From Cyanophora paradoxa CCMP329 (Eukaryota > Plantae > Glaucophyta): 64,000 nucleotides of DNA. Both the position numbers and the translations under genes were made by a program. Shown here in pieces: positions 4,838 to 64,000 of this stretch (positions are counted from its first letter, which is position 1; every line of letters starts with the position of its first letter). The notes under the pieces are model-generated. The model made no database searches. It was given only the letters and a program-made list of their open reading frames with translations, and was not told the DNA's origin. The DNA lies in assembly GCA_004431415.1 (NCBI GenBank), contig QPMI01000652.1, positions 19,959 to 83,958 on the forward strand, given 5' to 3'.

Positions 4838-5089
4838 GCCCCGGCCCGAAGAGCGCGGGGGGGTAGGCGAGCGAGCTTGTGGGATGCGTGTTACAAGAAA
4901 TTGAACCGGGCCGCGCGCCCTCGCGGCCGAGGGGCGGATCGAGACGAGGGGGGGGGGGGGGATGGAGATAGGGGGGAGGGGGGGGGAGGGAAAGAGGGGG
5001 GGGAGGGGGGCAGGGGGACGAAAGGGGTGGAAAGAGAGAGGAAGGATAGGCTTGGGGAGCGGGGGCGGCGGGGGGTACGGAAGGGGGCC

Positions 5090-6930
5090 GGGCCTCGCCC
5101 CTCGAAGCTCGCCTGGTCGATTCCGGCAACGGCGCCTGTACCCCTGGGAGGGCCCATGGGCCCTGCCGTGAGCTTGGGCGAGCGGCGGGGGGGCGGGGCG
5201 GGGCGGGGGGTACGGTCGGACCGAGCCTCGCCCCTGATGGCCCGCCTGGGCGATTCCGGCTACGGCGCCTGTACCCCTGGGCGGGCCCAGGGGCTCGTCG
5301 GTGAGGCGGGGCGAGCGGCGGCCGCGGGGAGCGGGCAGAGTGCGGCGTACGGGCGGACCAAGCCTCGCCCCTGATGGCCCGCCTGGTCGATTCCGGCTAC
5401 GGTGCCTGTACCCCTGGGAGGGCCCGTGAGCTCTTCGGTGAGGCGGGGCGAGCGGCGGCCGCGGGAGCGGAGAGAGTGGGGGGTAACGGACGGACCGAGC
5501 CTCGCCCCCTGGTAGCCCGCCTGGTCGATTCCGGCTACGGCGCCTGTACCCCTGGGCGGGCCCGTGAGCTCTTCGGCGAGACGGGGCGAGCGGCGGTCGC
5601 GGGGAGCGGGCAGAGTGGGGGGTACGGACGGACCGAGCCTCGCCCCTGATGGCCCGCCTGGTCGATTCCGGCTACGGCGCCTGTACCCCTGGGCAGGACC
5701 GTTGGCTCTTTGGTGAGACGGGGCGAGCGGTGGCCGCGGGGAGCGGGCAGAGTGGGGGGTACGGACGGACCGAGCCTCGCCCCTGATAGCCCGCCTGGTC
5801 GATTCCGGCTACGGCGCCTGTACCCCTGGGCGGGCCCGTGAGCTCTTCGGTGAGACGGGGCGAGCGGCGGTCGCGGGGAGCGGGCAGAGTGGGGGGTACC
5901 GACGGACCGAGCCTCGCCCCTGATAGCCCGCCTGGTCGATTCCGGCTACGGCGCCTGTACCCCTGGGCGGGCCCGTGAGCTCTTCGGTGAGACGGAGCGA
6001 GCGGCGGGGAGCGGAGGGAGTAGGGGGTACGGGCGGACCGAGCCTCGCCCCCTGATGGCCCGCCTGGTCGATTCCGGCTACGGCGCCTGTACCCCTGGGC
6101 GGGCCCGTGAGCTCTTCGGCGAGACGAGGCGAGCGGCGGGGAGCGGGCAGAGTGGGGGGTACGGACGGACCGAGCCTCGCCTCTGATAGCCCGCCTGGTC
6201 GATTCCGGCTACGGCGCCTGTACCCCTGGGCAGGACCGTTAGCTCTTCGGTGAGACGGGGCGAGCGGCGACCGCGGGGAGCGGGCAGAGTGGGGGGTAAC
6301 GGACGGACCGAGCCTCGCCCCTGATAGCCCGCCTGGTCGATTCCGGCTACGGCGCCTGTACCCCTGAGCGGGCCCGGGGGCTCGGCGGTGAGACGGGGCG
6401 AGCGGCGACCGCGGGGAGCGGGCAGAGTGGGGGGTACCGACGGACCGAGCCTCGCCCCTGATAGCCCGCCTGGTCGATTCCGGCTACGGCGCCTGTACCC
6501 CTGGGCGGGCCCGTGAGCTCTTCGGTGAGACGAGGCGAGCGGCGGGGAGCGGGCAGAGTGCGGCGTACGGACGGACCGAGCCTCGCCCCTGATAGCCCGC
6601 CTGGTCGATTCCGGCTACGGCGCCTGTACCCCTGGGCGGGCCCGGGGGCTCGGCGGTGAGACGGGGCGAGCGGCGGTCGCGGGGAGCGGGCAGAGTGGGG
6701 GGTACCGACGGACCGAGCCTCGCCCCTGATAGCCCGCCTGGTCGATTCCGGCTACGGCGCCTGTACCCCTGGGCGGGCCCGTGAGCTCTTCGGTGAGACG
6801 AGGCGAGCGGCGGGGAGCGGGCAGAGTGCGGCGTACGGACGGACCGAGCCTCGCCCCTGATAGCCCGCCTGGTCGATTCCGGCTACGGCGCCTGTACCCC
6901 TGGGCGGGCCCGTGAGCTCTTCGGTGAGAC
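5090..6930 (+). repeat. Array 1, type-A half: ~14 tandem units of ~131-138 bp, core CCTGGTCGATTCCGGCTACGGCGCCTGTACCCC
   Basis: Cores read near 5112 (degenerate), 5245, 5383, 5521, 5658, 5795, 5932, 6063, 6194, 6332, 6469, 6601, 6738 and 6868. Inter-core sequences are homologous to each other. Confidence 0.95.
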
Positions 6931-6989
6931 CCTCAAGAGAAGAGGCAGTGAGGGCGAGCGAGGGCGGGGGCGCACGAGGGGGTGCGAGA

Positions 6990-8425
6990 GGCCTAGGGGG
7001 TACACACGCCGTAGCCGGAATCAACCAGGCCGCCCCTACTGCGAGCCAGATGCTGCCGGCCGCACGGGGGGAAGAGTGAGCGAGGGCGGGGGGGCAAGGG
7101 AGGGGCGGGAGGCTCAATGGGGGGTACACACGCCGTAGCCGGAATCGACCAGGCCGCCCCTACTGCGAGCCAGATGCTGCCGGCCGCACGGGGGGCAGGG
7201 TGAGCGAGGGCGGGGGGGCAAGGGAGGGGCGGGAGGCTCAGAGGGGGGTACACACGCCGTAGCCGGAATCGACCAGGCCGCCCCTACTGCGAGCCAGATG
7301 CTGCCGGCCGCACGGGGGGCAGGGTGAGCGAGGGCGGGGGGGCGAGGGAGGGGCGGGAGGCTCAGTGGGGGGGTACACACGCCGTAGCCGGAATCGACCA
7401 GGCCGCCCCCTACTGCGAGCCAGATGCTGCCGGCCGCACGGGGGGCAGGGTGAGCGAGGGCGGGGGGGCGAGGGAGGGGCGGGAGGCTCAGTGGGGGGGT
7501 ACACACGCCGTAGCCGGAATCGACCAGGCCGCCCCTACTGGGAGCCAGCTGCTGCCGGCCGCACGGGGGGCAGGGTGAGCGAGGGCGGGGGGGCGAGGGA
7601 GGGGCGGGAGGCTCAGTGGGGGGGTACACACGCCGTAGCCGGAATCGACCAGGCCGCCCCTACTGCGAGCCAGCTGCTGCCGGCCGCACGGGGGGCAGGG
7701 TGAGCGAGGGCGGGGGGGCGGGGGAGGGGCGGGAGGCTCAGTGGGGGGTACACACGCCGTAGCCGGAATCGACCAGGCCGCCCCTTCTGCGAGCCAGATG
7801 CTGCCGGCCGCACGGGGGGCAGGGTGAGCGAGGGCGGGGGGGCGAGGGAGGGGCGGGAGGCTCAGAGGGGGGTACACACGCCGTAGCCGGAATCGACCAG
7901 GCCGCCCCTACTGCGAGCCAGATGCTGCCGGCCGCACGGGGGGCAGGGTGAGCGAGGGCGGGGGGGCGAGGGAGGGGCGGGAGGCTCAGTGGGGGGGTAC
8001 ACACGCCGTAGCCGGAATCGACCAGGCCGCCCCTACTGCGAGCCAGCTGCTGCCGGCCGCACGGGGGGCAGAGTGAGCGAGGGCGGGGGGGCGGGGGAGG
8101 GGCGGGAGGCTCAGTGGGGGGTACACACGCCGTAGCCGGAATCGACCAGGCCGCCCCCTACTGGGAGCCAGCTGCTGCCGGCCGCACGGGGGGCAGGGTG
8201 AGCGAGGGCGGGGGGGCGAGGGAGGGGCGGGAGGCTCAGTGGGGGGGTACACACGCCGTAGCCGGAATCGACCAGGCCGCCCCTACTGCGAGCCAGCTGC
8301 TGCCGGCCGCACGGGGGCAGGGTGAGCGAGGGCGGGGGGTCGGGGGAGGGGCGGGAGGCTCAGTGGGGGGTACACACGCCGTAGCCGGAATCGACCAGGC
8401 CGCCCCCTACTGCGAGCCAGCTGCT
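6990..8425 (-). repeat. Array 1, type-B half: ~12 tandem units of ~124 bp with the core inverted (GGGGTACACACGCCGTAGCCGGAATCGACCAGG on +)
   Basis: The reverse complement of the core recurs every ~124 bp and faces the type-A half. The spacer family differs from type A. Confidence 0.95.
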
Positions 8426-9387
8426 GCGAGAGGGTACGCGCCGCCGAGCGAGCGAGGGGGATGTCGGCGGCAGGGCCCGGGCGGGGGCGGGGGGAAAAGG
8501 AGGGGCGGGGGGTACACAAGCCGCACCAGGGACCGGCCGCGACGCCTAGGCCTGCGCTGCAGCCGAGATGCGCCTCGCGGCTTCGCAACGCGGGGCGGCC
8601 CGCGCCCGGGGCGTGCGACGACGCCGGGAGACGGCGGCCGCCGAAAAGAGGCGCGCCGGCCGAGCCTCGCTCGACGCGCCCTGCGGGGGGGCGAGGCTGG
8701 CGAACCGGGCTCGAGGCGCGGCGGCCCGGCGGCGCGGCAGGAGAGCGAGGCGCCCGGACCGCGCCAGCGCGGGCGCGGGCGCGCTCGCCGCAGCTGCTCG
8801 CCCCCGCACACGCCAGCGCGCTGCGCTCCCGGCGCCGCCCCGCCGCCCTGCGCCCCGGAGGATGAGCGCCCCGCTCGCGCTGGCGCGGAACGAGCCCTCT
8901 GCTTGCGCGGGCGGCCCGGCTGGCCGGCGGATGCGTGTGGCGGTGCGGCGCGGCCGCGGCGCGGCGGCGGTCCATAGCTAGGCGGAGCGGGGCGCCGGCG
9001 GGCGTGGGGCGCCGGCTCCCGGTGCCCTCGGCTAAGACGACCGGCGCCGGCATCCCGCCGGCCGGCCCTCGCGGGCGCGAGCCGCGCGCATCGCACCTGT
9101 TCGAGGCGCGCTCCGCGCCGGGGCGTCTCCTGAACCGCCCGGCCGGTCCTCGGAACGCGCAGCTGGTCCTGGAGCTACATGGACGGTGCAGAGGCGTCGC
9201 GCTGGCCGCGGCGCCGCGCGGCGCCGGCCGCGGACGAGAACTACATGCCAAAGGTCGCCGGGACGGCAGGACCGGCTCCGCGAGCGATCTACTGTACTCG
9301 GGAGCTCCAGAGCTCACGGGGGCGTCGCGGGGCCCGCGGCCGCCGGCGCCCCGCATGCAGCGTTTTTTCGGGGCCAGTTTGCAACGT

Positions 9388-14682: not shown

Positions 14683-14763
14683 CGTACACGGCTACCAGCA
14701 ACGCGACGCGTCGACTTTGCATTTTTCATCCGCAGTTCGCCGCATTCATGTTCATATTGCATC

Positions 14764-17166: not shown

Positions 17167-17206
17167 ATGGCCCCTGCCGCACCCGCCCCGGCTTTTGCCG
17201 GCCCCA

Positions 17207-17239
<33 letters not shown>

Positions 17240-18138
17240 TCGATTCAAGCCTCGAGCTCGACGACCTCGACCTGGACATCGATCTCGACGATATCGACGG
17301 AGAGGTCGGCGGGCTCGAGCTCGCGCCCGAGGCGCAACGGGGCTGTACCCCCGCCGCCCCCGATCGCGAGCCCGAGCCAGGGGCGCCGCCGGCCGGCGGT
17401 GCGGGGGCACGGGGCGCCGGGCCCGCCCCCGTCCCGGGCGCTGGCGCCTTTGCCGTCGCCGCCCCCACCGGCGCCCAGCGCCCGAAACCAAAGCGGCCCC
17501 CCTCGCCGACGAGCCTCGCCCTCGAGGCGCGGCCGCGGCTGCTGGAGGAGCTCCGCTCCGCCTGCGAGCGGCTGAACCTGCCCCCCGCCGCCGCGACCGA
17601 GGCGCTGCGGCAGCTCAAGCTCCGGCCCGAACTCTTCAACGGGCGGCCCTACTCGCTCCTGGTCCTCGCGGCCCTCTACTCTGCGTGCACCTCGCTGCAC
17701 ATCCCGCGCCGGATCTGCGAGTTCGAGTCGGCCTGCCCCGAGGGCACGCGGCGCCGCGCCCTCGTCCGGTGCTACAGGGAGCTGCGCCGCAGGGTCCCCG
17801 GGGCGCCCGCCCCCGGGACCGACGGGGGCGTGGGGCCCGCCCACTACGTGCCCGGGCTGGCGGCCCGCCTCGGCTGCACCCGCGCCCAGACGGCCGACGC
17901 CCTCGCGCTGGCCGAGCGGTGGCACAGGGAGAGCAGGGCCCCCGAGCTCGGGATCCCGCAGATCCGCGCCGCCACCGTCGCCGCTGCGGCGGTGCTCCTC
18001 AGCCGCGGGCCGGGGGCCCCGCGGCTCAGCCCGCGGCACGCGGCCGCCGCCTGGGGCCTCGCCCCCACCCCGCTGTACACGGCGCTCCCCGTGGTCCGCG
18101 AGTTTCAGCGGCGGGCCTCGCGCCCGGCTGCGGGCTAA
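17167..18138 (+). CDS. TFIIB-like protein (two cyclin-fold repeats, acidic N-terminus, no Zn ribbon)
   Basis: Repeat 1: ELRSACERLNLP...GRPYSLLVLAALYSAC...IPRRICEF...LVRCYREL. Repeat 2: PAHYVPGLAARLG...ATVAAAAVLL. TATAAA near 17104. Confidence 0.8.
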
Positions 18139-20552: not shown

Positions 20553-21139
20553 GGCCCCTCTGCAAAAAGGGTTTACGGGTTCCGGCTGTAGGTGCTGCAG
20601 CTGTGGCTGCCGTCGTTGTCGACGTGTTTCGACCGCGCAAATGCGCCGAGCTCGGCCGCCTCTCTCCCTTTTGTCGACGCGGCAGACGGGAATCCCGGGC
20701 GCCGAGAATCCCGAGCGCCATTTTATATAATTATTCGAGCGCGCGCGCCGCCCTCCGGTATCGTCTACCCGTTGCGCCCGCGCGCCCATCGTGATCATCT
20801 ACCCTTGGTACCCTGTCCGGGATGCCCCAGCGCCCCCGCCTCTTCCTCTTCCCCCCGCAAGGCTTTGCATTGACACGGCGCAATTCGAATCCCGAATTCA
20901 TGTCTGATTTCTTTGCGCAATAGATCACTGATGCATATTTCATCGGCGAGAGCGATTTCGTCCGCGCCCGTCGCCGGCCGCGTCCGCTGCGGAGCGGCTG
21001 CGGCGGCCCCCGCTGCCGCCCCGGGCCTGCCGGCGCCCGGCCCCTCGTCCGCCGTCTTGCTTTGCCGGCGGCCGGGGCTGGGAGGCGGGGGAGCCGCTCG
21101 GCACCGTGCGGGCAGTTGCCGAGGCCTGCCGCAGCGCGG

Positions 21140-22395
21140 GCTCTCGGTGAGACGAGACGCGGGGCGCGGGGCGCAGGTGGGGGGAGGGGTGGGCGGGGGT
21201 ACGGACGGACCGGGACCCGCCCCTGATAGCCCGCCTGGTCGATTCCGGCTACGGCGCCTGTACCCCCTTCGACGGTCGCGGGGCCGAGTCCTGCCGCAGC
21301 GCGGGCTCTCTGTGAGACGAGACGCGGGGCGCGGGGCGCAGGTCGGGAGAGGGGAGGGCGGGGGTACGGACGGACCGGGCCCCGCCCCTGATAGCCCTCC
21401 TGGTCGATTCCGGCTACGGCGCCTGTACCCCTTCAACGGCCGCGGGGCCGAGTCCTGCGGGCGCGCTCTGTGAGACGAGACGCGGGGGCGCGGGGCGCAG
21501 GCGGGGGGAGGGGTAGGGCGGGGGTAAGGACGGACCGGGGCCTGTCCCTGATAGCCCGCCTGGTAGATTCCGGCTACGGCGCCTGTACCCCCTTCGACGG
21601 CCGCGGGGCCGAGTCCTGCCGGCGCGCTCTGTGAGACGAGACGCGGGGCGCGGGGCGCAGGTCGGGAGAGGGGAGGGCGGGGGTACGGACGGACCGGGCC
21701 CCGTCCCTGATAGCCCTCCTGGTCGATTCCGGCTACGGCGCCTGTACCCCCTTCGACGGCCGCGGGGCCGAGTCCTGCCGGCGCGCTCTGTGAGACGAGA
21801 CGCGGGGCGCGGGGCGCAGGTCGGGAGAGGGGAGGGCGGGGGTACGGACGGACCGGGCCCCGCCCCTGATAGCCCTCCTGGTCGATTCCGGCTACGGCGC
21901 CTGTACCCCCTTCGACGGCCGCGGGGCCGAGTCCTGCCGGCGCGCTCTGTGAGACGAGACGCGGGGGCGCGGGGCGCAGACGGGGGGAGGCGGAGGGGGG
22001 AAGCGAGGGGTACGGACGGACCGGGCCCGTCCCTGATAGCCCGCCTGGTCGATTCCGGCTACGGCGCCTGTACCCCTTCCACGGCCGCGGGGCCGAGTCC
22101 TGCGGGCTCTCTGTGAGACGAGACGCGGGGCGCGGGGTGCAGGTTGGGGGATGGAGAGGGCGGGGGGTACGGACGGGCCGGGCCCCGTCGCTGATAGCCC
22201 TCCTGGTCGATTCCGGCTACGGCGCCTGTACCCCCGTCGACGGCCGCGGGGCCGAGTCCTGCGGGCTCTCTGTGAGACGAGACTCGGGGCGCGGGGTGCA
22301 GGTTGGGGGATGGAGAGGGCGGGGGTACGGACGGACCGGGCCCCGCCCCTGATAGCCCTCCTGGTCGATTCCGGCTACGGCGCCTGTACCCCCGT
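21140..22395 (+). repeat. Array 2, type-A half: 8 units of ~160 bp
   Basis: Same core near 21234, 21400, 21560, 21720, 21879, 22045, 22203 and 22361. Confidence 0.95.
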
Positions 22396-22444
22396 CGACG
22401 GCCGCGGGGGCCGAGTCCTGCGTGCCTGCGTGCCGCGGGCGCCG

Positions 22445-23385
22445 AGTGAGCGAGGGCGGGGGCGCGGCGAGGGGGCGAGAGGCTCAGGGGGGTACACACG
22501 CCGTAGCCGGAATCGACCAGGCCGCCCCTACCACGAGCCTGCTGCTGCGGGCCGCACGGGGGAAAGGATGAGCGAGGGCGGGGCGCGGCGAGGGGGCGAG
22601 AGGCTCAGGGGGGTACACACGCCGTAGCCGGAATCGACCAGGCCGCCCCTACCACGAGCCTGCTGCTGCGGGCCGCACGGGGGAAAGGATGAGCGAGGGC
22701 GGGGCGCGGCGAGGGGGCGAGAGTCTCGGGGGGGTACGCACGCCGTTGCCGGAATCGACCAGGCCGCCCCTCCTCTGAGCCTGCTGCTGCGGGCCGCACG
22801 GGGCGCTGGGTGGGCGGGGGCGGGGCGCGGCAAGGGGGGCGAGAGGCCCAGGGGGGTACACACGCCGTTGCCGGAATCGACCAGGCCGCCCCTACCGCGA
22901 GCCTGCTGCGGCGGGCCGTGCGGGCCGCCGAGTGAGCGAGGGCGGGGGCGCTCGAAGGGGGCGAGAGGCCTAAGGGGTACACACACCGTAGCCGGAATCG
23001 ACCAGGCCGCCCCTACTGCGAGCCTGCTGCCGCGGGCCGTACGGGTCGATGGGTGAGCGAGGGCGGGGCGCGGCAGGGGGGCGAGAGGCTCGGGGGGGTA
23101 CGCACGCCGTAGCCGGAATCGACCAGGCCGCGTCTACCACGAGCCTGCTGCTGCGGGCCGCACGGGGGAAAGGATGAGCGAGGGCGGGGCGCGACGAGGG
23201 GGCGAGGGGCTCGGGGGGGGGGTACACACGCCGTAGCCGGAATCGACCAGGCCGCCCCTACTGCGAGCCTGCTGCCGCGGGCCGTACGGGTCGATGGGTG
23301 AGCGAGGGCGGGGCGCGGCAGGGGGGCGAGAGGCTCGGGGGGGTACGCACGCCGTAGCCGGAATCGACCAGGCCGCCCCTACTCT
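22445..23385 (-). repeat. Array 2, type-B half: 8 units of ~121 bp
   Basis: Inverted core near 22505, 22626, 22750, 22870, 22990, 23112, 23235 and 23357. Confidence 0.95.
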
Positions 23386-34951: not shown

Positions 34952-34991
34952 AAAGAAATGGTGTCCGGCATTAGAACATAGTCTCGAGCTT

Positions 34992-44301: not shown

Positions 44302-45570
44302 TCACGCACCCGGGTTTGCGGTCGCGGAGTTCATGGTTGAGGCTTCCGAAGGCGTCGACGTCGCGATCGACGTCGACGTTAATGTCGCATCCATGTGCCC
44401 GGTGGCCGATCGTGAGAGTGCACTGAAGCACGGGCAGCTAGCGCAACCCTTTGACAGGATGTCGAGACAGGAAGTAATTTCCTTGACTGTCCAAGAGCAA
44501 CCCACAACCAGAGAGGTGCAGAGGCCGCCGCGGACGAGCGGGCAGGCGCCCATCTCAACAAGCACAGCAACAGTGATCAAATACTCTCCAACACGGCTGT
44601 TGCTATTGCTGGCAACCTCCGAAGTCTCACGGCAAAGTCTGTCAACGGCAAACGCACCGCAGTACACGGCCAACATGAGGGCCCGCCCCTGCGCCGCGTT
44701 GGGCGACGCTCCAGCTCCGATTAGGCGGGCGACCAATCGAGGCCACCCGCCGGCTGCAGCTGCTGCGAGGGCATTGCTGAGCTCGGTAGACAGGGTGTCG
44801 GATCCGTCGTCGACGTCTCGAGAGTTGGAGGTGCTAACATGCATGGCGGCGAGAAGCTCGTTCACGGCTGCTTCGTTGCCTTCAAATGCGGCAGCGGAAA
44901 GCGCGGAGCTCTCGATCACCGCCAAAAGCTCCAGATCCAGACCACCAATCACGCCAAGGAGGGGCTTGCATTTGACGCGGGTCATCAAGTCGAACCAGTG
45001 GACACTGGGGGCACTGTCGTCGCTGCGAATCATTATCTCTAACATGCGAGATACGTTGAAATCGTTCCGCGCAATCTGGTAAAGGCGCTCAATGTCCGCT
45101 GCAAGGGCCTCATCGCATTCGTGATCGAGCTCAGAGGGAGCAGCCCAGAGTGGCGGGTCGAGCTGGCCATGGCTGCCTGGGGGCCAGATGGGGTCGAAGG
45201 TGGAATGACGTTCGTTCTTATTCCACCGCATCTTGGACCCCTTGAGAACCCCCAGCCTGAGAGCACAAGGCGTATACGTACTCAGCGTTAATATAACGTT
45301 GGGCATACATGGAATTCTTGATGGGCCGGGGGTTCGGGCGGAGCTCGCCATGCTCGTACCGTTTACAGGCTGCCTGCTGGGCGAACCGACTGGCCTTTTG
45401 CTTCTCCGGAGCCAGGTCTCGATCCCCGTTCCTGGGCAGCACAGCCTGACGCCGCCGCTCCCACGGAAGAAAGATGCGATACGCTCCGAGCGGGTCGCGA
45501 TCAGCCACGCCTCGGACGAGGCCACGGTCATGGGTATACGTAGCCGGCGCCGACCGCGGCACGGAAACAA
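44302..45570 (-). CDS. Ankyrin-repeat protein
   Basis: SALSAAAFEGNEAAVNELL and NALAAAAAGGWPRLVARLIGAGASPN...ALMLAV match the ankyrin consensus. Start uncertain. Confidence 0.7.
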   Translation of the reverse strand: MFPCRGRRRLRIPMTVASSEAWLIATRSERIASFFRGSGGVRLCCPGTGIETWLRRSKRPVGSPSRQPVNGTSMASSARTPGPSRIPCMPNVILTLSTYTPCALRLGVLKGSKMRWNKNERHSTFDPIWPPGSHGQLDPPLWAAPSELDHECDEALAADIERLYQIARNDFNVSRMLEIMIRSDDSAPSVHWFDLMTRVKCKPLLGVIGGLDLELLAVIESSALSAAAFEGNEAAVNELLAAMHVSTSNSRDVDDGSDTLSTELSNALAAAAAGGWPRLVARLIGAGASPNAAQGRALMLAVYCGAFAVDRLCRETSEVASNSNSRVGEYLITVAVLVEMGACPLVRGGLCTSLVVGCSWTVKEITSCLDILSKGCASCPCFSALSRSATGHMDATLTSTSIATSTPSEASTMNSATANPGA

Positions 45571-50369: not shown

Positions 50370-50830
50370 TGCTGACAGATAGCCCGCCTGGTCGATTCCG
50401 GCTACGGCGCCTGTACCCCCCGACGGGCCCACGAGCTCTCTGGTGGGACGAGGCGGGCGGCGGGGGGCGGGGAGAGCGGGGGTACGGACGAACCGAGCCC
50501 CGCCGCTTATCGCCCGCCTGGTCGATTCCGGCTACGGCGCCTGTACCCCTGGGCGGACGCGCGAGCTCTCGGTGAGACGCGGCGAGCGGCCAGAGGGTTC
50601 GGGGGAAGCGGGGGGGTACGGACAAACCGAGCCCCGCCGCTTATGGCCCGCCTGGTCGATTCCGGCTACGGCGCCTGTACCCCTGGGCGGGCCCGCGAGC
50701 ACGTCGGTGAGGCGAGGCGAGCGGCCAGAGGGTGCGGGGGAGCGGGGGTACGGACGGACCAGGCCCGCCGCTTATGGCCCGCCTGGTCGATTCCGGCTAC
50801 GGCGCCTGTACCCCTGGGCGGGTGCGCGAG
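50370..50830 (+). repeat. Array 3, type-A half: 4 units of ~131 bp
   Basis: Core near 50388, 50517, 50652 and 50782. Confidence 0.95.
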
Positions 50831-50917
50831 CTCTTTGAGAGACGGGGGCGAGCGGTCGGAGGGTGCGGAAGCGCGCGAAGGGGTGGGTCGAGAGGAAAGG
50901 CAAACGACAGCGTTAGC

Positions 50918-52050
50918 AGGGGTACACGCACCGTAGCCGGAATCGACCAGGCCGCCCCTACTGCGAGCCAGCTGCTGCGATCCGTACGGGCCGCCGAGTG
51001 AGCGAGGGCGGGGGCGGGGGGGGCGCGTTGGAGGGTACACGCACCGTAGCCGGAATCGACCAGGCCGCCCCTACTGCGAGCCAGCTGCGGCGGGCCGTGC
51101 GGGCCGCCGAGTGAGCGAGGGCGGGGGCGCTCGAAGGGGGCGAGAGGCCTAAGGGTACACACACCGTAGCCGGAATCGACCAGGCCGCCCCTACTGCGAG
51201 CCTGCTGCCGCGGGCCGTACGGGTCGTCGAGCGAGCGAGGGCGGAGGCGCACAAGGGGGGCGAGGGGCCTAAGGGGTACACACACCGTAGCCGGAATCGA
51301 CCAGGCCGCCCCTGCTGCGAGCCAGCTGCGGCGGGCCGTGCGGGCCGCCGAGTGAGCGAGGGCGGGGGGCGCTCGAAGGGGGCGAGAGGCCTAAGGGGTA
51401 CACACACCGTAGCCGGAATCGACCAGGCCGCCCCTACTGCGAGCCTGCTGCCGCGGGCCGTACGGGTCGTCGAGTGAGCAAGGGCGGAGGCGCACAAGGG
51501 GGGGCGAGGGGGCCTAAGGGGTACACACACCGTAGCCGGAATCGACCAGGCCGCCCCTACTGCGAGCCAGCTGCGGCGGGCCGTACGGGCCGCCGAGTGA
51601 GCGAGGGCGGGGGGCGCTCGAAGGGGGCGAGAGGCCTAAGGGGTACACACACCGTAGCCGGAATCGACCAGGCCGCCCCTACTGCGAGCCTGCTGCCGCG
51701 GGCCGTACGGGCCGCCGAGTGAGCGAGGGCGGGGGCGCTCGAGGGGGGGCGAGGGGGCCTAAGGGTACACACACCGTAGGCGGAATCGACCAGGCCGCCC
51801 CTACTGCGAGCCAGCTGCGGCGGGCCGTACGGGCCGCCGAGTGAGCGAGGGCGGGGGCGCTCGAAGGGGGCGAGAGGCCTAAGGGTACACACACCGTAGG
51901 CGGAATCGACCAGGCCGCCTCTACTGCGAGCCAGCTGCCGCGGGCCGTGCGGGCCGCCGAATAAGCGAGGGGCGGGGCGCTCAAAGGGCCGAGAGGCCTA
52001 AGGGGTACACACACCGTAGCCGGAATCGACCAGGCCGGGCCCCTACTGCG
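50918..52050 (-). repeat. Array 3, type-B half: 10 units of ~120 bp
   Basis: Inverted core GGGTACACACACCGTAGCCGGAATCGACCAGG repeated. Confidence 0.95.
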
Positions 52051-52669
52051 GGCCAGCTGCCGCGGCCGTGCGGGCCGCCGAAGGAGCAACGAGGGCGGGG
52101 GGCGCGCGAGGGGCCGCGCGGAGCGGGGCAGCGGGCCGAGGAAAAGGGGGCGGGGCTCGCTGCAGCCCGAAGAAGCGGACCGAGCGCGGTGCCGGCCGAC
52201 TCGGTGATCGTCTTGCTCGCCGGACCCGGTGCGCCCGCACTCCTCCCCGCGTAGCGCTTCGCGAGGGTGTGGCGGAGAAGCGCGCGGGTCCGCACGCTGC
52301 GCGCCGGCGCCGCACGCGGCGGCCGCGGGACCGATCGATATCGACGGCCGGAGGCGCGCAGGCGGAAAAGCGCGGAAAGTGCGCCTTGGGCTCCGGCTGC
52401 GTCTGCGCTACCGCCCGAGCGCGGCGCCGTGCGCGCCGAGCTCGGGTGCCCAGCATGTGCGAATAGGGCACGCATACGTGAGCTTGTGGGCCGGAGAGGC
52501 ATCGGAGGGGCGCTGCGGATCGATCGCTAGCCATGGCCATGGGATCTTCGACTCAGTGACTGCGCCCGACCCGAGCACGAGCCGGGCGGGCGCCGACGCG
52601 ATTTTCGAGCTCAACAGGAGCCAAGGACTGCGCCAGAGGGCACTCGCGCGACGCGGCGTGCTGTTGAAA

Positions 52670-52697
52670 TTCGATGGTGCGATGTCGCACGATCGAA
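52670..52697. other. Second (inverted) copy of the 13-2-13 dyad element
   Basis: TTCGATGGTGCGA-TG-TCGCACGATCGAA (1 mismatch). Flanks are the reverse complement of ~9371-9430. Confidence 0.9.
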
Positions 52698-53654
52698 ACG
52701 TTGCAAACTGGCCCCCCCCCCCCCCGAAAGAGCTGCGCTTTGGGCCAGCGTGCGTGCACGCGCTCGCCGAGCTGCGGCGGCAGCTGGCGGCACGCGGTGC
52801 GCGTGCTCGAGCCTCCAGGCTCCAGCCGCACGGCTGCGGCGAGTCTCTGGGTACACGCATTTCCACCGCCGGGCGGAAAAGCACGCTAGAGCCACAGCGA
52901 TCCCACGCACAGAGAGCAGCGGACCCCGAGCCGCGCTCGTGCGGGCGCTCGGACGCGCCCGAGCCGCGAGCCTCCCTTCTGCTCTCCCGAGAGATCTAGA
53001 GCCACGCCTCCGGCGGTTCCAGCTACCCGTGCGGTTCATGCGCCTCCCGTCGGTCGTAGCCTGCTCGGCGGCCGCGGCCCGCAGGCAACTTTCGATCCGC
53101 CGCGGCTGACGTGCGCATGCCTCTGTACATGTCCCTCGCCCCGGCCCGCAGGGCGCCGACGCCGGATTAAGTTTTTGCGCGCCCGCGAGCTCTTCCTGCG
53201 TTCAGTTCGAATCCAAAGCGGCTCATGCCTACGCGCGCCCGCGCGCCCCGGCCGGGCCCGCCCCGCCGGAGCCGGCCGGCGCTCAACCGGCCCAGGCCTC
53301 GGCGCCGGGCCGCGGCGCCCCGTCGCCCAGAGCGGATCGCCTGGTGCGCTTCGGGCCGCCTGCTCGGGGGCGGGACGCGCGGCAGCGGCCTGGCGAGGCC
53401 GGGCGCGGGGACGTCGGTCGGCACGGGGAGCCGGCCGATGCCCTGCGGCGGCGGCGGCGCAAGCGGCGGCGGGGCGTCCATCGCGAGGTTGAGCGCGGCC
53501 CGGCCGGGCGCCGCGCCCGTGGCGGGCGAGAGAGGGCCCCGCTTCGAGCGTCCCCTCTGGATCCGCTTCCCCGCCAACGCCAAGCCCTCCGCAGCCGGCC
53601 CGCCGGGCGAGCCAAGAGCGCCCGGGGCCTCGTGTGGGGGTGCGCCCGAGCACG

Positions 53655-55452
53655 GCGGGCCTGGTCCGTCCGTACCCCCCGCTCTCCCCGCCCCCCGCCG
53701 CTCGCCGCGTCTCACCGAGGGCTCGCGGGCCCGCCCAGGGGTACAGGCGCCGTAGCCGGAATCGACCAGGTGGGCCATAGGCGGCGGGGGGCTGGTCCGT
53801 CCGTACCCCTCGCTTCCCCCGCACCCTCTGGCCGCTCGCCGCGTCTCACCGAGAGCTCGCGCGTCCGCCCAGGGGTACAGGCGCCGTAGCCGGAATCGAC
53901 CAGGTGGGCCATAGGCGGCGGGGGCCTGGTCCGTCCGTACCCCCCGCTTCCCCCGCACCCTCTGGCCGCTCGCCGCGTCTCACCGAGAGCTCGCGCGTCC
54001 GCCCAGGGGTACAGGCGCCGTAGCCGGAATCGACCAGGCGGGCCATAATCGGCGGACCCGGTCCGTCCGTGCCCTCTGCTCGCCCCGCCCCCCGCCGCTC
54101 GCCTCGTCCCACCGACGTGCTCGCGGGCCCACCCAGGGGTACAGGCGCCGTAGCCGGAATCGACCAGGCGGGCGATAAGCGGCGGGCCCGGTCCGTCCGT
54201 ACCCCCGCTCCCCTGCACCCTCTGGCCGCTCGCCTCGTCTCACGAGGGCTCGTGGGCCCGTCCAGGGGTACAGGCGCCGTAGCCGGAATCGACCAGGCGG
54301 GCCATAACCGGCGGGGCCCGGTCCGTCCGTACCCCGCTCGCCCCACCCCCCGCCGCTCGCCTCGTCTCACCGGCGTGCTTGCGGGCCCGCCCAGGGGTAC
54401 AGGCGCCGTAGCCGGAATCGACCAGGCGGGCCATAACCGGCGGGGCCCGGTCCGTCCGTACCCTGCACCCTCTGGCCGCTCGCCTCGTCTCACCGAGAGC
54501 TCGCGAGCCCGCCCAGGGGTACAGGCGCCGTAGCCGGAATCGACCAGGCGGGCCATAAGCGGCGGGCCTGGTCCGTCCGTACCCCCCGCTCTCCCCGCCC
54601 CCCGCCGCTCGCCGCGTCTCACCGAGGGCTCGCGGGCCCGCCCAGGGGTACAGGCGCCGTAGCCGGAATCGACCAGGCGGGCGATAAGCGACGGGCCTGG
54701 TCCGTCCGTACCCCCCGCTTCCCCGCACCCTCTTGCCGCTCGCCGCGTCTCACCAAGAGCCTCGCACCCGCCCAGGGGTACAGGCGCCGTAGCCGGAATC
54801 GACCAGGCGGGCGATAAGCGGCGGGGCCCGGTCCGTCCGTACCCCCGCTTCCCCTGCACCCTCTGGCCGCTCGCCTCGTCTCATCGAGAGCCCGCGGTCC
54901 GCCCAGGGGTACAGGCGCCGTAGCCGGAATCGACCAGGCGGGCGTTAAGCGGCGGGCCCGGTCCGTCCGTACCCCGCTCCCTGCACCCTCTGGCCGCTCG
55001 CCTCGTCTCACCGAGGGCTCGTGGGCCCGTCCAGGGGTACAGGCGCCGTAGCCGGAATCGACCAGGCGGGCCATAACCGGCGGGGCCCGGTCCGTCCGTA
55101 CCCCCGCTCGCCCCCACCCCCCGCCGCTCGCCTCGTCTCACCGGCGTGCTTGCGGGCCTGCCCAGGGGTACAGGCGCCGTAGCCGGAATCGACCAGGCGG
55201 GCCATAACTGGCGGGGCCCGGTCCGTCCGTACCCTGCACCCTCTGGCCGCTCGCCTCGTCTCACCGAGAGCTCGCGAGCCCGCCCAGGGGTACAGGCGCC
55301 GTAGCCGGAATCGACCAGGCGGGCCATAAGCGGCGGGCCCGGTCCGTCCGTACCCCCGCTTCTCCCCGTCCCCCGCCGCTCGCCTCGTCTCACCGAGAGC
55401 TCGCGGCCCGCCCAGGGGTACAGGCGCCGTAGCCGGAATCGACCGGGCGGGT
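53655..55452 (-). repeat. Array 4: ~14 type-A units on the minus strand, with no adjacent type-B half
   Basis: GGGGTACAGGCGCCGTAGCCGGAATCGACCAGG recurs every ~122-138 bp. Confidence 0.95.
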
Positions 55453-55737
55453 CAAAACCGGACGACTCTCGGCGGGCGCCGTTTCGCGGCGCCCACCGCG
55501 GGGCCCGCGCGCCGGCGTTGGGCCCGCGGGGCCATCGCCCACCGCCGGCCGCCGCCCCGCCCGGCACGCGTCCTTCCCACCGTACCTCTCCCTCTCCCCC
55601 GCACCCCGTCTGCCCGCTTTTGCCCATCCGGCGGGCCCCGATGGGGCATATATAGGAGTCGCCGGCCCCCCGATCCTCCCGACGAGACCCGCAGGCCCTT
55701 CTGCCGGGGTCCTCCTCCTTCCCCCCTGCCTCCGGCG

Positions 55738-58061
55738 ATGGCGTCGCAGCCGGCGTCGGGGGCCCAGGTGACGAGCCCGCGGGGCGCGGCGGGCGGCGCG
55801 TCCGGCTGCCCGCCCCTCGACTCGCGGCCGGCCAAGGTCAGCCTCCCCGCGTTCATCAGCCTGGGGCGGGACCCGCTCCTCTCCTGCCGCCCGGCCTGCG
55901 CCCGCTGCAAGTCGGAGCGCATCCTCCCCCGATCCTCCTCTCCTGCGCCGCCGCCCGCCTCCTCGCCAAGACCGGCGCATCGTCCGTCAACGAGGCCTGG
56001 ACGCCCACCCGCGCCCGCCTCGACGACCTCAAGTTCAACTCGACCGGCTCGTTCGTCTGCCTCAGCTGCGCCCTCACCCTCCTCTCCGTCAGCGCCGAGG
56101 GCGGCGCCTCGCCGCCCCTCTTCACCTGCCCCAGCTGCGGCGACCCCCACCCGGCCGCCTCGGGCCTCGTCTGCAGCTCCCGCATCGACGCCCTCTTTTC
56201 CTTTCTCGCCTACATCGACGACGCCGCCTTTGCCGCCTCGTGGATCTCCGGCGACCTCTGCCTCCGCACGGCGCTCACGTACGCCCTCGAGCGCTTCCAG
56301 GCGGCCGCCGCCCAGGCCCGCGCCCCGCCGCCGCCGCCGGCGGCGGCCCCGCCCCGGCCCCGCGGCCCCCGCCGGGCGGGCCCGAGCTCGGGCTCCGGCT
56401 CTGGCCCCGAGCCGCCGCCCCGTCCGACGGATCCGCGCCGCCGCCCAGCCGCCGGCGCGGCGGCCGCCCCCTGGCCCCGGGGAGCCGGCCGCGGGCGCCA
56501 AGGCCCAGGGCGGCAAGAAGCGCAAGGAAAAGGGCGCCGCCTTGGGCCCGGGCCGGCCGCCGAGGAGGAGGGGAGGAGAAGGAGGAGGAGGGGCGGCCAC
56601 CGGGCCCTCGCGATCGCGCGCCAAGCGCGCCGCGACGTCGACCAAGGGCCCGGCGCGGGGCGAGTCGGCGGCCGAGCAGGAAGAGGGGGAGGACGGCGCC
56701 GAGGAGCGGGCGCTGGAGCGGCGCAAGACGCTGCGCCCGCCCAAGCCGGCGAGCTCCCCCGACCCCGAGGCGGCGTCGGCGTCGGCCTCGGCGCAGGGCG
56801 CCGGCCCGGGTCCGGCTCGGGCGCCGGCCCTCGAAGCCGGCGCGGCGGGCGGCGCGGAGCAAGTGGGGCGCCGGGCGCGACCGCCGCAAGGAGTGGGAGT
56901 CGGACAAGCTCATCCGCGTCCTCTACAACGCGTACACGCGCCCCAAGGACGAGGACGCGCGCTCCGAGTCGGAGGGGGCAGCTCGGCCGGGAGCGGCGGC
57001 GGCGGCGGCGGCAGCAGCGGCGGCGGCGGCAAGGGCAAGGGCAAGGGCAAGGCGGCGGCGGCCCCCTCGCCATCGAGGCGGGCCCGAGGGCGGCGGGGGC
57101 GGCGGCGGCGGCTCGGGCAGCGAGGAGGACGGCTCGCGCGCCGGCTCGCCGGACCGCGGGCAAGGAGCTCGCGGAGCGCTGGCGCAAGGCCCTCGCCGAG
57201 GCGGAGCGGGCCGAGGGCGGCGCGGACGACGCCGACGAGCTCGCCGAGGGCCCCGCCGGGGCGGGGGCGAGGCGAGGGCGGGCTCGACCCAGAGTCGCTG
57301 GAGGCCTACGACTTTGGGCTCGAGGCGGGGATCGACCCGGGGCTCATCGGGCGCCAGATCGACGCCAGCCCCGAGGCCGCGCGGCCCTCCTGAACCGCAT
57401 CGAAGAGGCGGGGCGGGAGCGGATCCGCTGCATCATGCTCATCGCCTGCTCCGTCCTCGCCGTCCACCAGGCCTACACGGAGCGCTACGGCCGCAACCGC
57501 CGCCTCTGGGGCGCCTACCGCGCCGAGCACCTCTGCGCAAAGTACGACCACATCCTCCAGGCGGCCGGCTTTCGCCTCGAGGTCAGCGCCCAAAAGGTGA
57601 GGTCGCTTCGAATTCCCTGCGGGAGGAGGGGGCGGGGGCGGGCCCCTAGCGCTAGCTGCAAGCACGCGTGCCCGGCCCGGCGTGCTTTCAACGTCGCTCA
57701 CCGGAGGCTCGCGCAGTCCGAGATCTACAACGACCTCGCGCGCTGGGAGAGACGCTCACGAGGTTCCCTGGCCTGGCGCGCGTCTGCGGGAGCGGCATAT
57801 CGGTCGTCGACTTTGTCAGCTGCTCCCGCTCCTGAAGGGCTGCACGAAAGAGGGGCGGACCAGATCCGGGAGCGGCTCGCGGAAGAGGTGCAGCGCGCCA
57901 AGGGCTTTGTCTTTGACGGCTCGGTGCTGGAGCTTCGGAGGCCGGCGAGAGCGACGGGGACGGGGACGGGGACGAGCAGAGCGAGGCGTCGGGCGAGGAA
58001 GGGGCCGCCGAAGGCGCCGGCGAGGCCGGCGCCAAAGGCGACTGACCGGCAACGAAAATAG
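55738..58061 (+). CDS. RING-like protein with basic/G-rich linker and conserved C-terminal domain (paralog of 25260-28162); frameshifted
   Basis: TATA-like ATATATAG near 55648. Motifs CRPACARCKSERILP/PILLSC...GSFVCLSC...FTCPSCG and WGAYRAEHLCAKYDHILQAAGFRL. Probable intron ~57597-57716. Confidence 0.65.
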
Positions 58062-58479: not shown

Positions 58480-59560
58480 TCAGGCGCTCTCGGTGTCGGC
58501 CGCCGTGTCTCCCTTCAAGCGTCGCGCAAGATCCGTGTCTGCAGGGCTGTCCAAATTCAAGGATCAGGACAGTCGCGATTAGCATCAATCCGAGCGTGAC
58601 ATTATAATTAAAGAAGCAGCCTGGCAGAGGGAGCTTAAGCCATGCTTATAATTATAGTTATAATCAAGGGACGGAAGAGGCACTGCAGCATTTGTAATCA
58701 AAAATAGGGCAAGACCTTACGCGTGCGCACCCGACCGTGACTCGCTTGCGGTGCTTGGCCGCGAGGACACCACCCTCGAACCAGCGAATGATGTGCGCCT
58801 CGGCGGCCTCGCGAATGGCTTGGATAGTGTCCTGCAAGACATGAAATACTAATCAGCCAGCTATTCGCACCCCCCCGCGCCCGGCACTGCGGCACGGGCG
58901 CGCACCTTTGTGAACCGAAAGTTAACAGATTGTTCACGAAGACCGGCCTCCACGTCTTCCTTGATCATCGCGGCCGTGAGCTCGCGCACCTGCGCACGTG
59001 CACGCGCCGCACAGCAGGGCACAGGGCTCGGCGGCAGAGGATAGTTTCAAGTTTTGAAGGGCCCCCACACGTACCAGGCGGCCGAACGGGGCCAGCGGAA
59101 TGAGGGCATTGTAGGTCTTCTGGTACCTGAACAGGAGCGGGGTTTCATTCAGAATTTATTTGTCACAGATCTAAATAGATTTAAACAAGAGTGAAATAAA
59201 AAACATTGAACGTACTTCACAATTTCGCGCTTTGCCACCGTCCCAGGGCGATGGCTGCGCGAGCGAGCGATTCTCACGTGCCGGGACTTTCTCTTCAAAA
59301 TAAAACGTAGGGAAGAGAGCAGGCCGACCGGAACGGCTTTCTCACTCCGCCCTCGCCCACAGCCTTTTTCCGCGCGGCTTTGGTCTTGAGGCCGCTGGCG
59401 CCGGAGCTCTTGAATGCCTTTCGCGGGGCCTTGTTTCCGGTGCCACGCTTGGCAGTTTGCTGCAAAATATAATTACAATGAACGAACTCGAAAGAACTAA
59501 GAATCGCAGATATGAATTCAGCGGCTTTCATGATCATTTTCCCACCTTGATGCGGGGCAT
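58480..59560 (-). CDS. Divergent histone H3-like protein, 7 exons
   Basis: Spliced at GT-AG sites it reads MPRIK|QTAKRGTGNKAPRKAFKSSGASGLKTKAARKKAVGEGGVRKPFR|HRPGTVAKREIVK|YQKTYNALIPLAPFGRL|VRELTAAMIKEDVEAGLREQSVNFRFTK|DTIQAIREAAEAHIIRWFEGGVLAAKHRKRVTVG|PADTDLARRLKGDTAADTESA*. This is colinear with canonical H3 throughout. Confidence 0.92.
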
Positions 59561-60697: not shown

Positions 60698-63414
60698 ATG
60701 TTCAGCGTGGTCAAGGACGCCTACGAGGTCGCCGAGTTCGACGGCCTGTGGGGCCGGGACCGCCTGATCCTGCTGCGCTCCGACGCCGGCCTCGTCGTGC
60801 CCGTCGCCGAGCTGCGCCGCATCCTCATCTACGCCCCCGATGAGCCGCCGGAGGACCCCGACCGGGCGCTGGCGGACCTGTACCGCGTCCCCTGCAGGCC
60901 CGTCGCGAGCGAGGAGACGATCCTGCTGCTCGAGATGCTCGGCGTGATCCGCCGCGGGGCGCACCGGCCCGACGGGAGCCCGCCGCGCGTCGTCTCCCTC
61001 CGCCACGCCGAGCAGATCGTGTGCGAGCGGTGGGACGAGGACCCCGGGGTGAGCGCGAGGAAGCGGTGCGTCGCCCGCCACATCCCGCCGCGATCGAGCG
61101 CCGCCGGCTCGAGTCGTTCGAGCGCGTCGAGCTCCGCGTCCTCCGCCTCGGCCCTCCAGCGCCACCGCGTCTTTGCCCTCCGCTGCAAGCGCATCGAGGT
61201 CCCGTGAGCGGCGCCCCCGACCAAGCACCGCCCCGGCGCCCCGCCCGCCCCGCGCCCCACGCTCACCCGGCCTCAGGACGTCGAGTGGTACGCGCCCATC
61301 GCGTCCCTCGCGCAGGCGGCGTACGGCTCCTCGCGGGACGTCCCTCGCTGCGGGCCGAGATCAGGCGCAAAGCACCCCGACCTCGGGGCCGACTCGCCTT
61401 TTCGCTTCGAGGCACGGACCGACGTCGTCGGGCGGGCCCGCTTCGCCCTCCTCACCAAGGCGCGCGCCCGCCTCCCGCCTCCCGACGCGCCCGGGCGCCG
61501 GCTGATCGATATTGTGACCGCCCGCGGCCGGGGGGTCAGACGCTGACGCTGTACGCCGGGCTGAACGCCGAGGTCGAGGGCGAGGCGACGCGCGGGGCGG
61601 CGCGCAAGTGGGGCTTCATCAGCCTCGCCGGCGCCGAGAGGATCCTCCAGGGCCTGCCGCGCTTCGGACGAGCTCCTCGTGCCGTTCCGCCGCCAGCGCC
61701 TCGCCTCGAGGGCGCCGACGCCGCCGAGATCGAGGCCGCGCCGCTGCCCCTCGCCCCCGCCCGCCGCATCGCCATCTTTACGAAGCGCGAGTGGCTCACG
61801 GTAAGCAGAGGGACGCGCGGGGCCGGGGCGCGGGATCGAGGCGGAGGGGCCGGGGGCGCTGACGCGGGCGGCGGCGGCAGGACCAGCACATCGCCAACTG
61901 CCTCTCGATCGTGCTGGCGCGGGCCAGCGCGGCGCCCCGCGTCCGAGCCCTGTACCCCATGACGCTCGACATTGCGACGAGCCTCCTGCCGCCGCCACGC
62001 GCGCGCCAGCCCCGAGAAGCGCCGGCGCCGCGCCCTGGGGGCGGCGGAAGGAGGGGCGCGTCATCCTCTGCCCGTCTCGGGCGGGCTCGTGCGCGCGGGT
62101 CGGAGCGAACCTGGAGCGCGGGGGGCCACTGGACGCTCCTCGTATCTCCGGCGACCTGCGCCGCACCCGCTACTTTGACAGCCTGGGCGCGCGCCCGGAC
62201 CCGTCGCTGGAGCGGGCGGCGAAAAAGGCCTTTCCGAACTTTGAGTTCGAGGTCGAGACGCAGCTGCGGCTGCAGGCCGATGGGTACCAGTGCGGCATCT
62301 GTGCGCGCCCGCCGCCGCTCAGCGAGTGGTACCGGTACGGTGCAAGGGGAAGGACGCCGACGCACCCGTGCGCGCGCAGGGGTCCTCTACTTTGCGGAGA
62401 GCGTGGTGAGCGAGGCGCTCCTCGGCTTTCCCTGGGACGACGAGCTGCGCACCGGCGCCCTCCACTACCTGCGCACCAAGTCGCCCTCGTACGAGGAGAG
62501 AAAGGCGATCAACGGGCGCTTCATCGCGGGAAAGAGGGAGCACTTTCGGAGCCTGCTCGAGTCGGCGCTCGTCGGCGACGTCTACCTCTTCTGCGAGGCC
62601 GACGTCGCCGATCCGGAGCGCGTGACGCTCCCGCCGCCGGCCGCCGCGGGCGAGGCCGCCGCCGCCGCCGCCGCCGCCGCCGAGGGGAGGCCCCGCCGGC
62701 GGGCGGACGGGGGGCCGCTGGTCATCTCCTCGTCCTCTTCCTCGTCGTCCTCGTCGTCCGCCCCGTCCGACGAGGCCGACGAGGCCCAAGGCGGGGCCGC
62801 GGACGGCGGCGCCGACGGCGAGGCAGAGGGCCTGGAGCTGGAGGCGGCGCCGGAGGCGAGCGAGGGCGAGGGCGAGGGCGAGGGGGCCGCAGAGGGCGGG
62901 CGGTCGCGCCCGGAGCCGTACGCGCTGCCGGAGGGCGAGTGGAGCCGCGAGCTGCGGGCGCAGATGAAGCTCTTCGAGGAGTGGAGGACGAGGGCGATCA
63001 ACCCGGACCGCGCGGGGGCGGCCGTCGAGCGGAGCACGGCCCTGACGAACGACGTCGGTGAGCGGGCGCGGCGGCGGCGGCGGAGATGCATATGGGCGGG
63101 GCGGGGGACGGAGGAAAGGGGGCTCACGGGGAATCGACGCAGGGACGGTGGGGCGCTTCCTGGGGTACCTGGCGGCGAGGGAGGAGGTCAGACCGCTCTC
63201 GTTCGACGTCTTCTCGCGGGGGGACCTGATCGACCTGTGGATGCGGTTCCTGACGTTTCTCAAGGAGGAGAGGAAGCTCACCGCGGGGACGCTGAGCGGC
63301 TACACCAGCTCGATCATCATGGCCGCCGCCTTTGTGCACTCGAGGACGGGCGCCGCGACGGGGAGCGAGGGCCCGCACGCCCGCGCCCTGAAGAACGTCA
63401 AGGTCAGAGGCGCT

Positions 63415-63459
<45 letters not shown>

Positions 63460-64000
63460 GGAGGAGAGGGCGGAAGAGGGTCGGGGCGGGGCTACGAACC
63501 CGACGCCCGCCCGCCCGCAGGCGCAGCTGGAAAAGGAGAAGCGGGAGGAGCGCAAGTGGCGGCCGCGGGGCGAGAACTGGGTCGAGTACGAGCAGGTCCT
63601 GGGCGCCCGGCTCGCCGCCCTCGAGCAGTACGAGGGCGCGAAGACGGACTACGAGCGGGCCCAGGCCCTCCGCGAGGCCTGCCTCCTCGGCTTCCTCGCC
63701 GTCACGCCGGCCCGCGTCGGGATCATCCGCCGCCTGCGCGTGGGGGTGAGCCTGCGGCGCGACGCGGGGGCGTGGTGCATCGTCATCGACTCGATGCGGG
63801 CGGACGACGGGACGGGGGAGATGGCCCTCGCGAGCAAGACGGCCCGCTTCCACGGGGCCCTCTCGATCCCCGTCGCCGCCGTCCTGCAGGAGCCGCTCAC
63901 CCTCTTCGTGGAGCGCTTCCGCCGCCTCCTCATCCCCGACGGCGCCCCCGACCAGCAGTGGCTCTTCACCAGCTCGAGCGGCGGCGTCCTCAGCGAGAGC
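60698..64000 (+). CDS. Multi-exon fusion: N-terminal putative DNA-binding repeats + Ulp1/SENP (C48)-like protease + tyrosine recombinase (3' partial)
   Basis: TATA near 60619. Protease motifs: REWLT|DQHIANCL, GHWTLLV, RYFDSLG, QADGYQCG (1-nt frameshift near 62143). YR core-binding region: RFLGYL...FLTFLKEERKLTAGTLSGYTSSI. YR catalytic region: NWVEYEQV...LLGFLAVTPARVGIIRRL...SKTARFHG...WLF. The HxxR and Tyr motifs lie beyond the window. Confidence 0.8.
63424..63462 (+). repeat. (GA)n microsatellite in an intron of the recombinase gene
   Basis: Direct reading of the sequence. Confidence 0.9.

Follow-up and report, generated by a model that had tools for sequence, protein, structure and literature searches.

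The window analysed in this study, a stretch of 64,000 nt from the Cyanophora paradoxa CCMP329 contig QPMI01000652.1, contains a divergent histone H3 gene on the minus strand (58480..59560), delineated by a gene model, homology and spliced contigs. Its seven exons (59560-59546, 59459-59329, 59254-59216, 59126-59075, 58989-58906, 58831-58731 and 58546-58480) form a 489-nt coding sequence for 162 amino acids without internal stops, and the six introns between them are all GT..AG and 74-184 nt long; the canonical introns and intact frame reported in the first-pass annotation of this DNA were thus confirmed by the model. Exon 1 (59546..59560, minus strand, five codons) was placed by homology to the H3 start. 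An alternative ATG at 59537, inside intron 1, was rejected, being out of frame owing to an additional base at 59522 present in both DNA runs. Exon 2 (59329..59459, minus strand) encodes the H3-like tail with the K9R, S10G, S28K and K36R replacements and an 8-aa insertion, and is joined to exon 3 in contigs of runs X15 and X16. Exon 5 (58906..58989, minus strand) encodes loop 1 with a 12-aa insertion and retains F84, as seen in the alignment and the spliced contigs, and exon 6 (58731..58831, minus strand) encodes helix 2 and loop 2.

The runs X15 and X16 were guessed to be RNA, no run being recorded as such. In their contigs introns 2, 3, 4, 5 and 6 are spliced out at the predicted sites, with intron 4 retained in one X16 contig. 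No intron skips at the histone gene are listed in the DNA runs X1 and X11, which cover the locus. Since the X15 and X16 contigs skip introns 2-6 and the DNA runs have no such skips, the histone gene is real, transcribed and spliced. The junction check by RNA proposed in the first-pass annotation thus succeeded for these five introns; no contig among those of X15 and X16 bridges intron 1. Depths of the histone contigs in the RNA-like runs are low (2-10), depth being a poor measure. No contig is listed over the histone coding exons in X17 and X18 (one sample) or in X19, and this was not counted as silence. Comparison with both DNA runs (X1, X11) reveals 1-bp indel errors in the window; all 12 such rows among the matches listed (there are 34 further rows) lie in introns or outside the coding sequence.

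Exon 6 matches Pfam Histone with E 2.4e-5, under the curated cut-off, as well as H3 proteins from PDB, and phmmer gives the window histone 105-107 bits against H3s. Queries with exons 6 and 2 against a set of 5.8 billion proteins retrieved no matching protein, which is weak evidence and at most hints that the gene is unannotated. In a profile search of 1.84 billion representatives the matches listed (at least 258 bits) are canonical-like H3s only; as the window protein itself scores 204 bits, this search is uninformative on its relatives.

Residues were numbered by a 136-aa H3 (L050) that aligns without gaps to H3.3 from PDB. The alignment bears out most of the earlier residue calls: loop 1 is longer by 12 aa (the first-pass annotation had about 12), Q68 and T107 are replaced by glycine, and F84 is retained. 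In the tail, R8K, K9R and S10G (the reported change of RKS to KRG), S28K and K36R all hold, as does the retention of K4, K14, K18 and K27; K23, also called as kept, is so if the tail insertion is placed after residue 19. This insertion is indeed present, its length being 8 aa rather than about 7. Further changes are A1P, T3I, R63P, A75T, K79S, C110A and K122A, while K56, H113, R116 and T118 are kept. At the chaperone site 87-90 the sequence is D-T-I-Q, position 90 being R in a second version, and the C terminus is predicted to be longer by 6 aa. All three of T3, S10 and S28, which we take to be mitotic phosphosites, are changed; K14, K18, K23, K27 and K56, presumably acetylable lysines, are kept; and the active-mark sites K36 and K79 are lost together with K9. 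The identity to H3 is 46/95 (48%) in the fold and 25/39 in the tail (21/39 with a poorer tail alignment), and the best full-length identity among the H3 proteins compared equals 51%.

Fold positions conserved in both reference sets were compared with variable ones by the Fisher test, the fetch motifs being excluded. The window histone keeps 19 of 29 conserved positions, including H113, R116, T118, D123 and L126, versus 12 of 36 variable ones (p=0.013), which suggests selection to stay a nucleosomal histone. Relaxed selection also fits, given the loss of 10/29 conserved residues, the unconserved chaperone site and the very long branch.

On one side of the histone gene is an expressed convergent gene without assigned function (55738..58045, plus strand; GT..AG intron skip 57594>57715), whose transcript contigs merge with the 3' end of the histone gene. 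Introns of C. paradoxa have a mean length of 86 bp, overlapping UTRs are frequent and the alga is probably haploid, according to the available part of PMC6704402; the histone introns and the merging 3' ends are consistent with these host features. On the other side lies an intron-containing gene (60698..64000, plus strand), cut by the window end, that combines a Ulp1-like protease part with a tyrosine recombinase. Its N-terminal part is Ulp1-like (Peptidase_C48, E 0.005, under the cut-off). In the recombinase part (P0010; Atlas 0.97) the R, K, RxxR, H and Y motifs were read following the motif layout as we presume it to be, and among its closest Atlas clusters are Preplasmiviricota and Phage_integrase (17%). 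Viral contigs gave no match when searched with the recombinase. A copy of the gene, tig00020509_g9764, is 99% identical and carries real substitutions; a GIY-YIG domain closes its gene model and may come from a neighbouring gene fused to it. X17 contigs skip CT..AC stretches across the recombinase (60828-63900), the first skip being seen in X18 as well. These skips correspond to spliced antisense transcripts at the recombinase, partly from diverged copies.

At the opposite end of the window an intron-less SF2 helicase resembling the herpes origin-binding protein (OBP) is open at the window start (1..4863, plus strand); its ESM Atlas score is 0.98, Herpes_ori_bp occurs in 31-53% of cluster members, and there is no Pfam match. 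A TFIIB-like gene (17167..18138, plus strand; Pfam TFIIB E 0.13) has an approximately 97% copy within tig00020509_g9750, and its ORF is found in EukProt in a 90% cluster with this C. paradoxa gene. A small Cys-rich ORF directly precedes it (16634-18138 region), zinc-ribbon-like by eye, as if TFIIB were split. Altogether four window genes have copies on tig00020509: 18834-20552 corresponds to g9749, 15597 and 17167 to g9750, 11453 to g9753, and the recombinase to g9764. Exact look-ups of 25 window-encoded proteins (one asked twice) found seven different ones present, three with a named tig00020509 partner. The gene numbers on tig00020509 rise as the window coordinates fall, hence the recombinase would lie beyond the helicase end there.

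Second versions of the locus were also observed. In both DNA runs the intron of the convergent gene has a second version with 11 differences at a ratio of about 2:1 (410:216; 37.6:23.4), and so has histone exon 6, with the sole coding difference seen, Q>R at H3 position 90. A second version of the recombinase promoter is present in X1 and the RNA-like runs. Two locus versions in a probably haploid alga point to at least two copies including the histone, with the reservation that depth is not copy number and that alleles are possible. Together with the near-identical copies of neighbour genes on tig00020509, the second histone version supports the suggestion of the first-pass annotation that the histone is element-borne, and the gene is most likely part of a virus-like element that bears a recombinase and exists in several copies. 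The window probably opens with the final part of one element copy (1-23 kb) and closes with the initial part of another (50-64 kb), the stretch between them being lower in GC; the unit order would be arrays, convergent gene, H3, recombinase, further genes, helicase, arrays, TFIIB-like gene, arrays, which would place the histone within the element, with the arrays on one side and the recombinase on the other. GC3 of the histone (0.74) is below that of the helicase, TFIIB-like and recombinase exons (0.93-0.99), with two other small element ORFs at 0.74-0.81; the lower GC3 suggests that the histone is cargo acquired by the element. Capsid, packaging ATPase and maturation protease genes were absent from Pfam/PHROG scans of the window, and no other histone was found among its 402 scanned frames, a part of the element lying outside the window in both cases. 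In the stretch between the two presumed element copies (28000-48000; GC 50-66%) there is an AAA ATPase gene with many introns at 33316-34338 and an ankyrin ORF at 44305-45657; short palindromes are densely packed at 44-48 kb.

The repeat arrays nearest to the histone gene (50382..55461, without strand assignment) occupy 50382-50868, 50918-52113 and 53653-55461, share a 16-19-nt core and lie 3 kb from the gene. Head-to-head pairs of the same family, likewise unstranded, lie at 5070..8427 and 21136..23383; the left element copy may end at the latter. A remnant of two degenerate units is found at 14469-14697. Across four array blocks a fixed 16-nt core occurs 63 times, arranged in inverted blocks in the manner of protein-binding sites, and 47 of 52 single-unit spacings are shorter than 147 bp. 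Herpes-type OBPs bind origin repeats. The arrays are therefore more likely to be the origin or the terminal repeats of the element, served by the OBP-like helicase, than a centromere. The earlier proposal that they are a segregation locus is disfavoured by the short spacings, by the fixed core in inverted blocks and by the incomplete agreement of the histone with CenH3 (see below). A single terminal-inverted-repeat unit spanning 5-55 kb was also considered and rejected, being backed only by one 133-bp inverted match outside the arrays (9370-9502 / 52715-52583, 84%); permissive self-comparison of the window yielded GC noise. One exact 19-nt match to the array core occurs in a 9-kb viral contig (L070:1824-1842), probably by chance.

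Further, the CenH3 identity of the histone was considered. We took the diagnostic CenH3 threonine to be T107. Position 118 is printed for it in PMC4359364, the available part of which characterizes CenH3s by a longer loop 1, a highly divergent tail, the absence of three residues and phylogenetic grouping. In the window histone loop 1 is longer and Q68 is lost, as in CenH3, whereas F84 is kept and the tail is H3-like; the threonine depends on the numbering, since T107 is glycine and T118 is retained. A comparison set of 58 distinct full H3-like proteins was formed from viral contigs (69 loci, 11 of them dropped as duplicate or short). Q68 is absent in 20/58 of these proteins and in 3/33 of those with H3-like tails, T107 in 27/58, both residues in 18/58 (2/33 with H3-like tails), and loop 1 is longer in 13/58. 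The longest extension, 19 aa, was noted in L001 (L001:383-853, a 130-kb IMG/VR contig), an H3 with a near-canonical fold. A long loop 1 and the loss of Q68 and T107 are weakly specific for CenH3 because they are common in diverged non-centromeric H3s. The first-pass annotation had relied on these three traits as pointers to CenH3; this argument is not supported, the tail and F84 moreover disagreeing with the published description.

CenH3-like references were taken from metagenomes (24 kept of 38) by selecting unlabelled genes with A68 and W84, so that W84 in 24/24 of them reflects the choice on that residue. One has Cnp1 as its best PDB match, and one corresponds by eye to a published CenpA entry. 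For the maximum likelihood tree 36 of 92 rows were retained, leaving out fused viral H3s, the longest viral singles and near-duplicates. In this tree a 16-row CenH3-like clade (98/93) does not contain the window histone, which forms a long branch nearest to the H3 rows; a quick tree of all 92 rows agrees. Forcing it into the CenH3-like clade costs 9 log units, which is not significant (AU p=0.19; 0.191). The tree therefore placed the histone outside the CenH3-like clade and nearest to H3, although by the AU test a CenH3 placement stays acceptable. The viral L008 appeared as its sister in the 36-row tree, a relationship left unconfirmed, L008 being absent from the ten rows that share most derived residues. 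A CenH3-like gene filed as viral (L066:617-1006, an 8-kb IMG/VR contig) falls inside the CenH3-like clade and may be eukaryotic contamination.

Profile scores of the window histone fold are 94 bits for viral single H3s, 84 for CenH3-like and 75 for canonical profiles. The excess of CenH3-like over canonical bits is +9.5 for the window histone, up to +6 for fused viral H3s and +32 for a held-out CenH3-like row. Of 16 columns discriminating H3 from CenH3-like rows, 12 agree with neither group in the window histone, 3 with CenH3-like and 1 with H3, and its mean fold identity with loop 1 omitted equals 0.525 to 23 canonical, 0.519 to 30 viral single and 0.483 to 24 CenH3-like rows. The CenpA file in supplement 3 of PMC5579357 holds, in its available part, five entries from C. 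paradoxa (CPAR004798, 022740, 026130, 004349 and 010062), none of which is the window histone. Thus the host does have separate CenH3 candidates, the existence of which the first-pass annotation had proposed to check. By eye the best of them is CPAR010062, which has A68 and a tail unlike that of H3; as the file also includes plainly H3-like entries, it does not establish which gene is the true host CenH3. By eye, four of the five entries keep Q68 and three clearly F84, and the gene model of the fifth includes a fused MCM-like protein. The repertoire of diverged H3 variants in C. paradoxa seems to be enlarged. We conclude that the window histone is probably not a CenH3, its residues pointing to a fast-evolved H3 derivative, and that it likely derives from ordinary H3 (AU p=0.19).

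K9 methylation and its readers form a silencing route that would be lost without the K9 motif. The suggestion of the first-pass annotation that the histone could alter silencing is a fair one. The reading we hold most probable, though tentatively, is that the element carries a derivative of ordinary H3 lacking K9, S10, S28, K36 and K79, whose nucleosomes would refuse the K9 mark and possibly ease repression. The gene, presumably carried inside the element between the arrays and the recombinase, would be translated and its product would pair with host H4, as may be expected from the preferentially kept fold core. The variant would then be loaded on element DNA, or would dilute host H3 once the element is active. 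The loss of the K9 motif, with K14, K18, K23, K27 and K56 still acetylable, would block K9 methylation and its readers. In the available part of PMC12344493, C. paradoxa silences repeats and viral genes by CpG methylation, and H3K9/K27 methylation tracks 5mC in two other protists.

A close rival, itself rather unlikely in our estimate, is that the gene is passive cargo, a paralogue of host H3 which the element picked up or which was duplicated along with it, and which now drifts, weakly transcribed and without an element role. The introns are host-like (74-184 nt against the host mean of 86 bp), histone GC3 is lower than that of core element genes, the host has several other diverged H3s, 10/29 conserved residues are lost, and the only coding difference between the versions is an amino-acid change. 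Against such drift stand a frame intact over seven exons and exact splicing, the preferential retention of conserved positions (p=0.013), and the change of about half of the fold residues without a stop, which suggests long selection.

The unmapped element ends leave room for an improbable reading in which the gene encodes an H3 variant that serves the host, either at a particular stage or as a second CenH3, and sits in a duplicated region beside the element by chance. The long loop 1, the loss of Q68 and T107, the AU p=0.19 and the +9.5 bits towards the CenH3-like profile would suit a CenH3; the H3-like tail, F84 and the 16 discriminating columns (neither 12, CenH3-like 3, H3 1) do not, and the bit excess stands beside +6 for fused viral H3s and +32 for a held-out CenH3-like row. 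CPAR010062 is a better CenH3 candidate by eye, and element-type sequence flanks the gene on both sides. More improbable still is an element-specific CenH3 mimic marking the arrays as the partitioning locus of an episomal form. The arrays lie 3 kb from the gene, loop 1 is long, and a tyrosine recombinase implies a circular intermediate (PMC12220804, available part); yet 47/52 spacings fall below 147 bp, the 63 fixed 16-nt cores stand in inverted blocks, the OBP-like helicase is a simpler array binder, and the agreement with CenH3 is partial. We give the least weight of all to a packaging or dominant-negative histone of a virus phase that compacts element DNA or disturbs host chromatin generally. 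Single viral histones are supposed to work within the chromatin of the host (PMC9145170, available part), and some derived residues are common with fused viral H3s, possibly by convergence; the Pfam/PHROG scans of the window, outside which the element partly lies, revealed neither a capsid nor a packaging ATPase nor a further histone.

To sum up, the CenH3 and segregation story falls; what holds is a transcribed H3 lacking K9, most likely on a multi-copy element not described before, and this can be put to the test. A long loop 1 and the loss of Q68 and T107 alone do not identify CenH3. A literature search, with most subscription papers outside it, found neither this histone gene nor any H3 of a recombinase-integrating element described. 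The broader reading is speculative and unlikely to hold in full: a new glaucophyte family of large, intron-bearing, recombinase-integrating elements would encode its own fast-evolved, silencing-proof H3 that keeps its chromatin open. If true, this is a mobile element that works against heterochromatin with a nucleosome of its own supply. Most single viral H3s come from uncultured genomes (PMC9145170, available part). A spliced, multi-version H3 in a culturable alga with a published methylome makes entry into chromatin and the offset of silencing testable.

Among known systems, transposons capture chromatin readers, Cyanophora being unmentioned in the available text of the report (bioRxiv 10.1101/2021.11.30.470311). 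Polinton-like viruses (PLVs), adinto-like sequences and giant endogenous viral elements (GEVEs) have been reported in C. paradoxa, and PLVs with tyrosine recombinases have been described, in the available parts of PMC12220804, PMC8502044 and PMC12344493. The element shares with PLVs a YREC-type integrase, with nearest clusters including Preplasmiviricota. It differs from PLVs and GEVEs in its probable unit size of more than 40 kb, intron-containing genes, OBP-like helicase, TFIIB-like gene, Ulp1-like fusion and dispersed arrays, and no capsid gene was seen in the window. Mirusviruses have intron-rich genes and count histones among their core functions (PMC12768974, available part), so that intron-containing genes and a histone are common to them and the element; the main text of that paper mentions neither a recombinase nor Cyanophora.

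The window histone resembles CenH3/CENP-A in the longer loop 1 and the replacement of Q68 and T107, and its A75T and R63P also occur in plant CenH3 entries (PMC5579357 supplement 3, available part). In contrast to CenH3, it has an H3-homologous tail, keeps F84 and T118, and falls outside the CenH3-like clade, and the host has other candidates. Some of the C. paradoxa H3 variants, in the available entries, share with it S57T, L92I, V101I or the M-P-R-x-K start (by eye); unlike it, they have canonical alpha-N and alpha-1 sequences and no 12-aa loop insertion. A parallel in arrangement is provided by the single H3s of DNA viruses (xenomavirus, DSLPV1, sylvanvirus and MAGs; PMC9145170, available part), each a single H3 whose tail is H3-like, whose setting is virus-like and which presumably uses host H4. 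Their fold identity is 73-87% to host H3 and 73-89% to eukaryotic H3, compared with 48% for the window histone, and they largely keep the chaperone and modification sites (same source), whereas the window histone has lost K9, S10, K36, K79 and the chaperone motif. Unlike them, it is encoded by a gene with six introns and resides in an integrated element.
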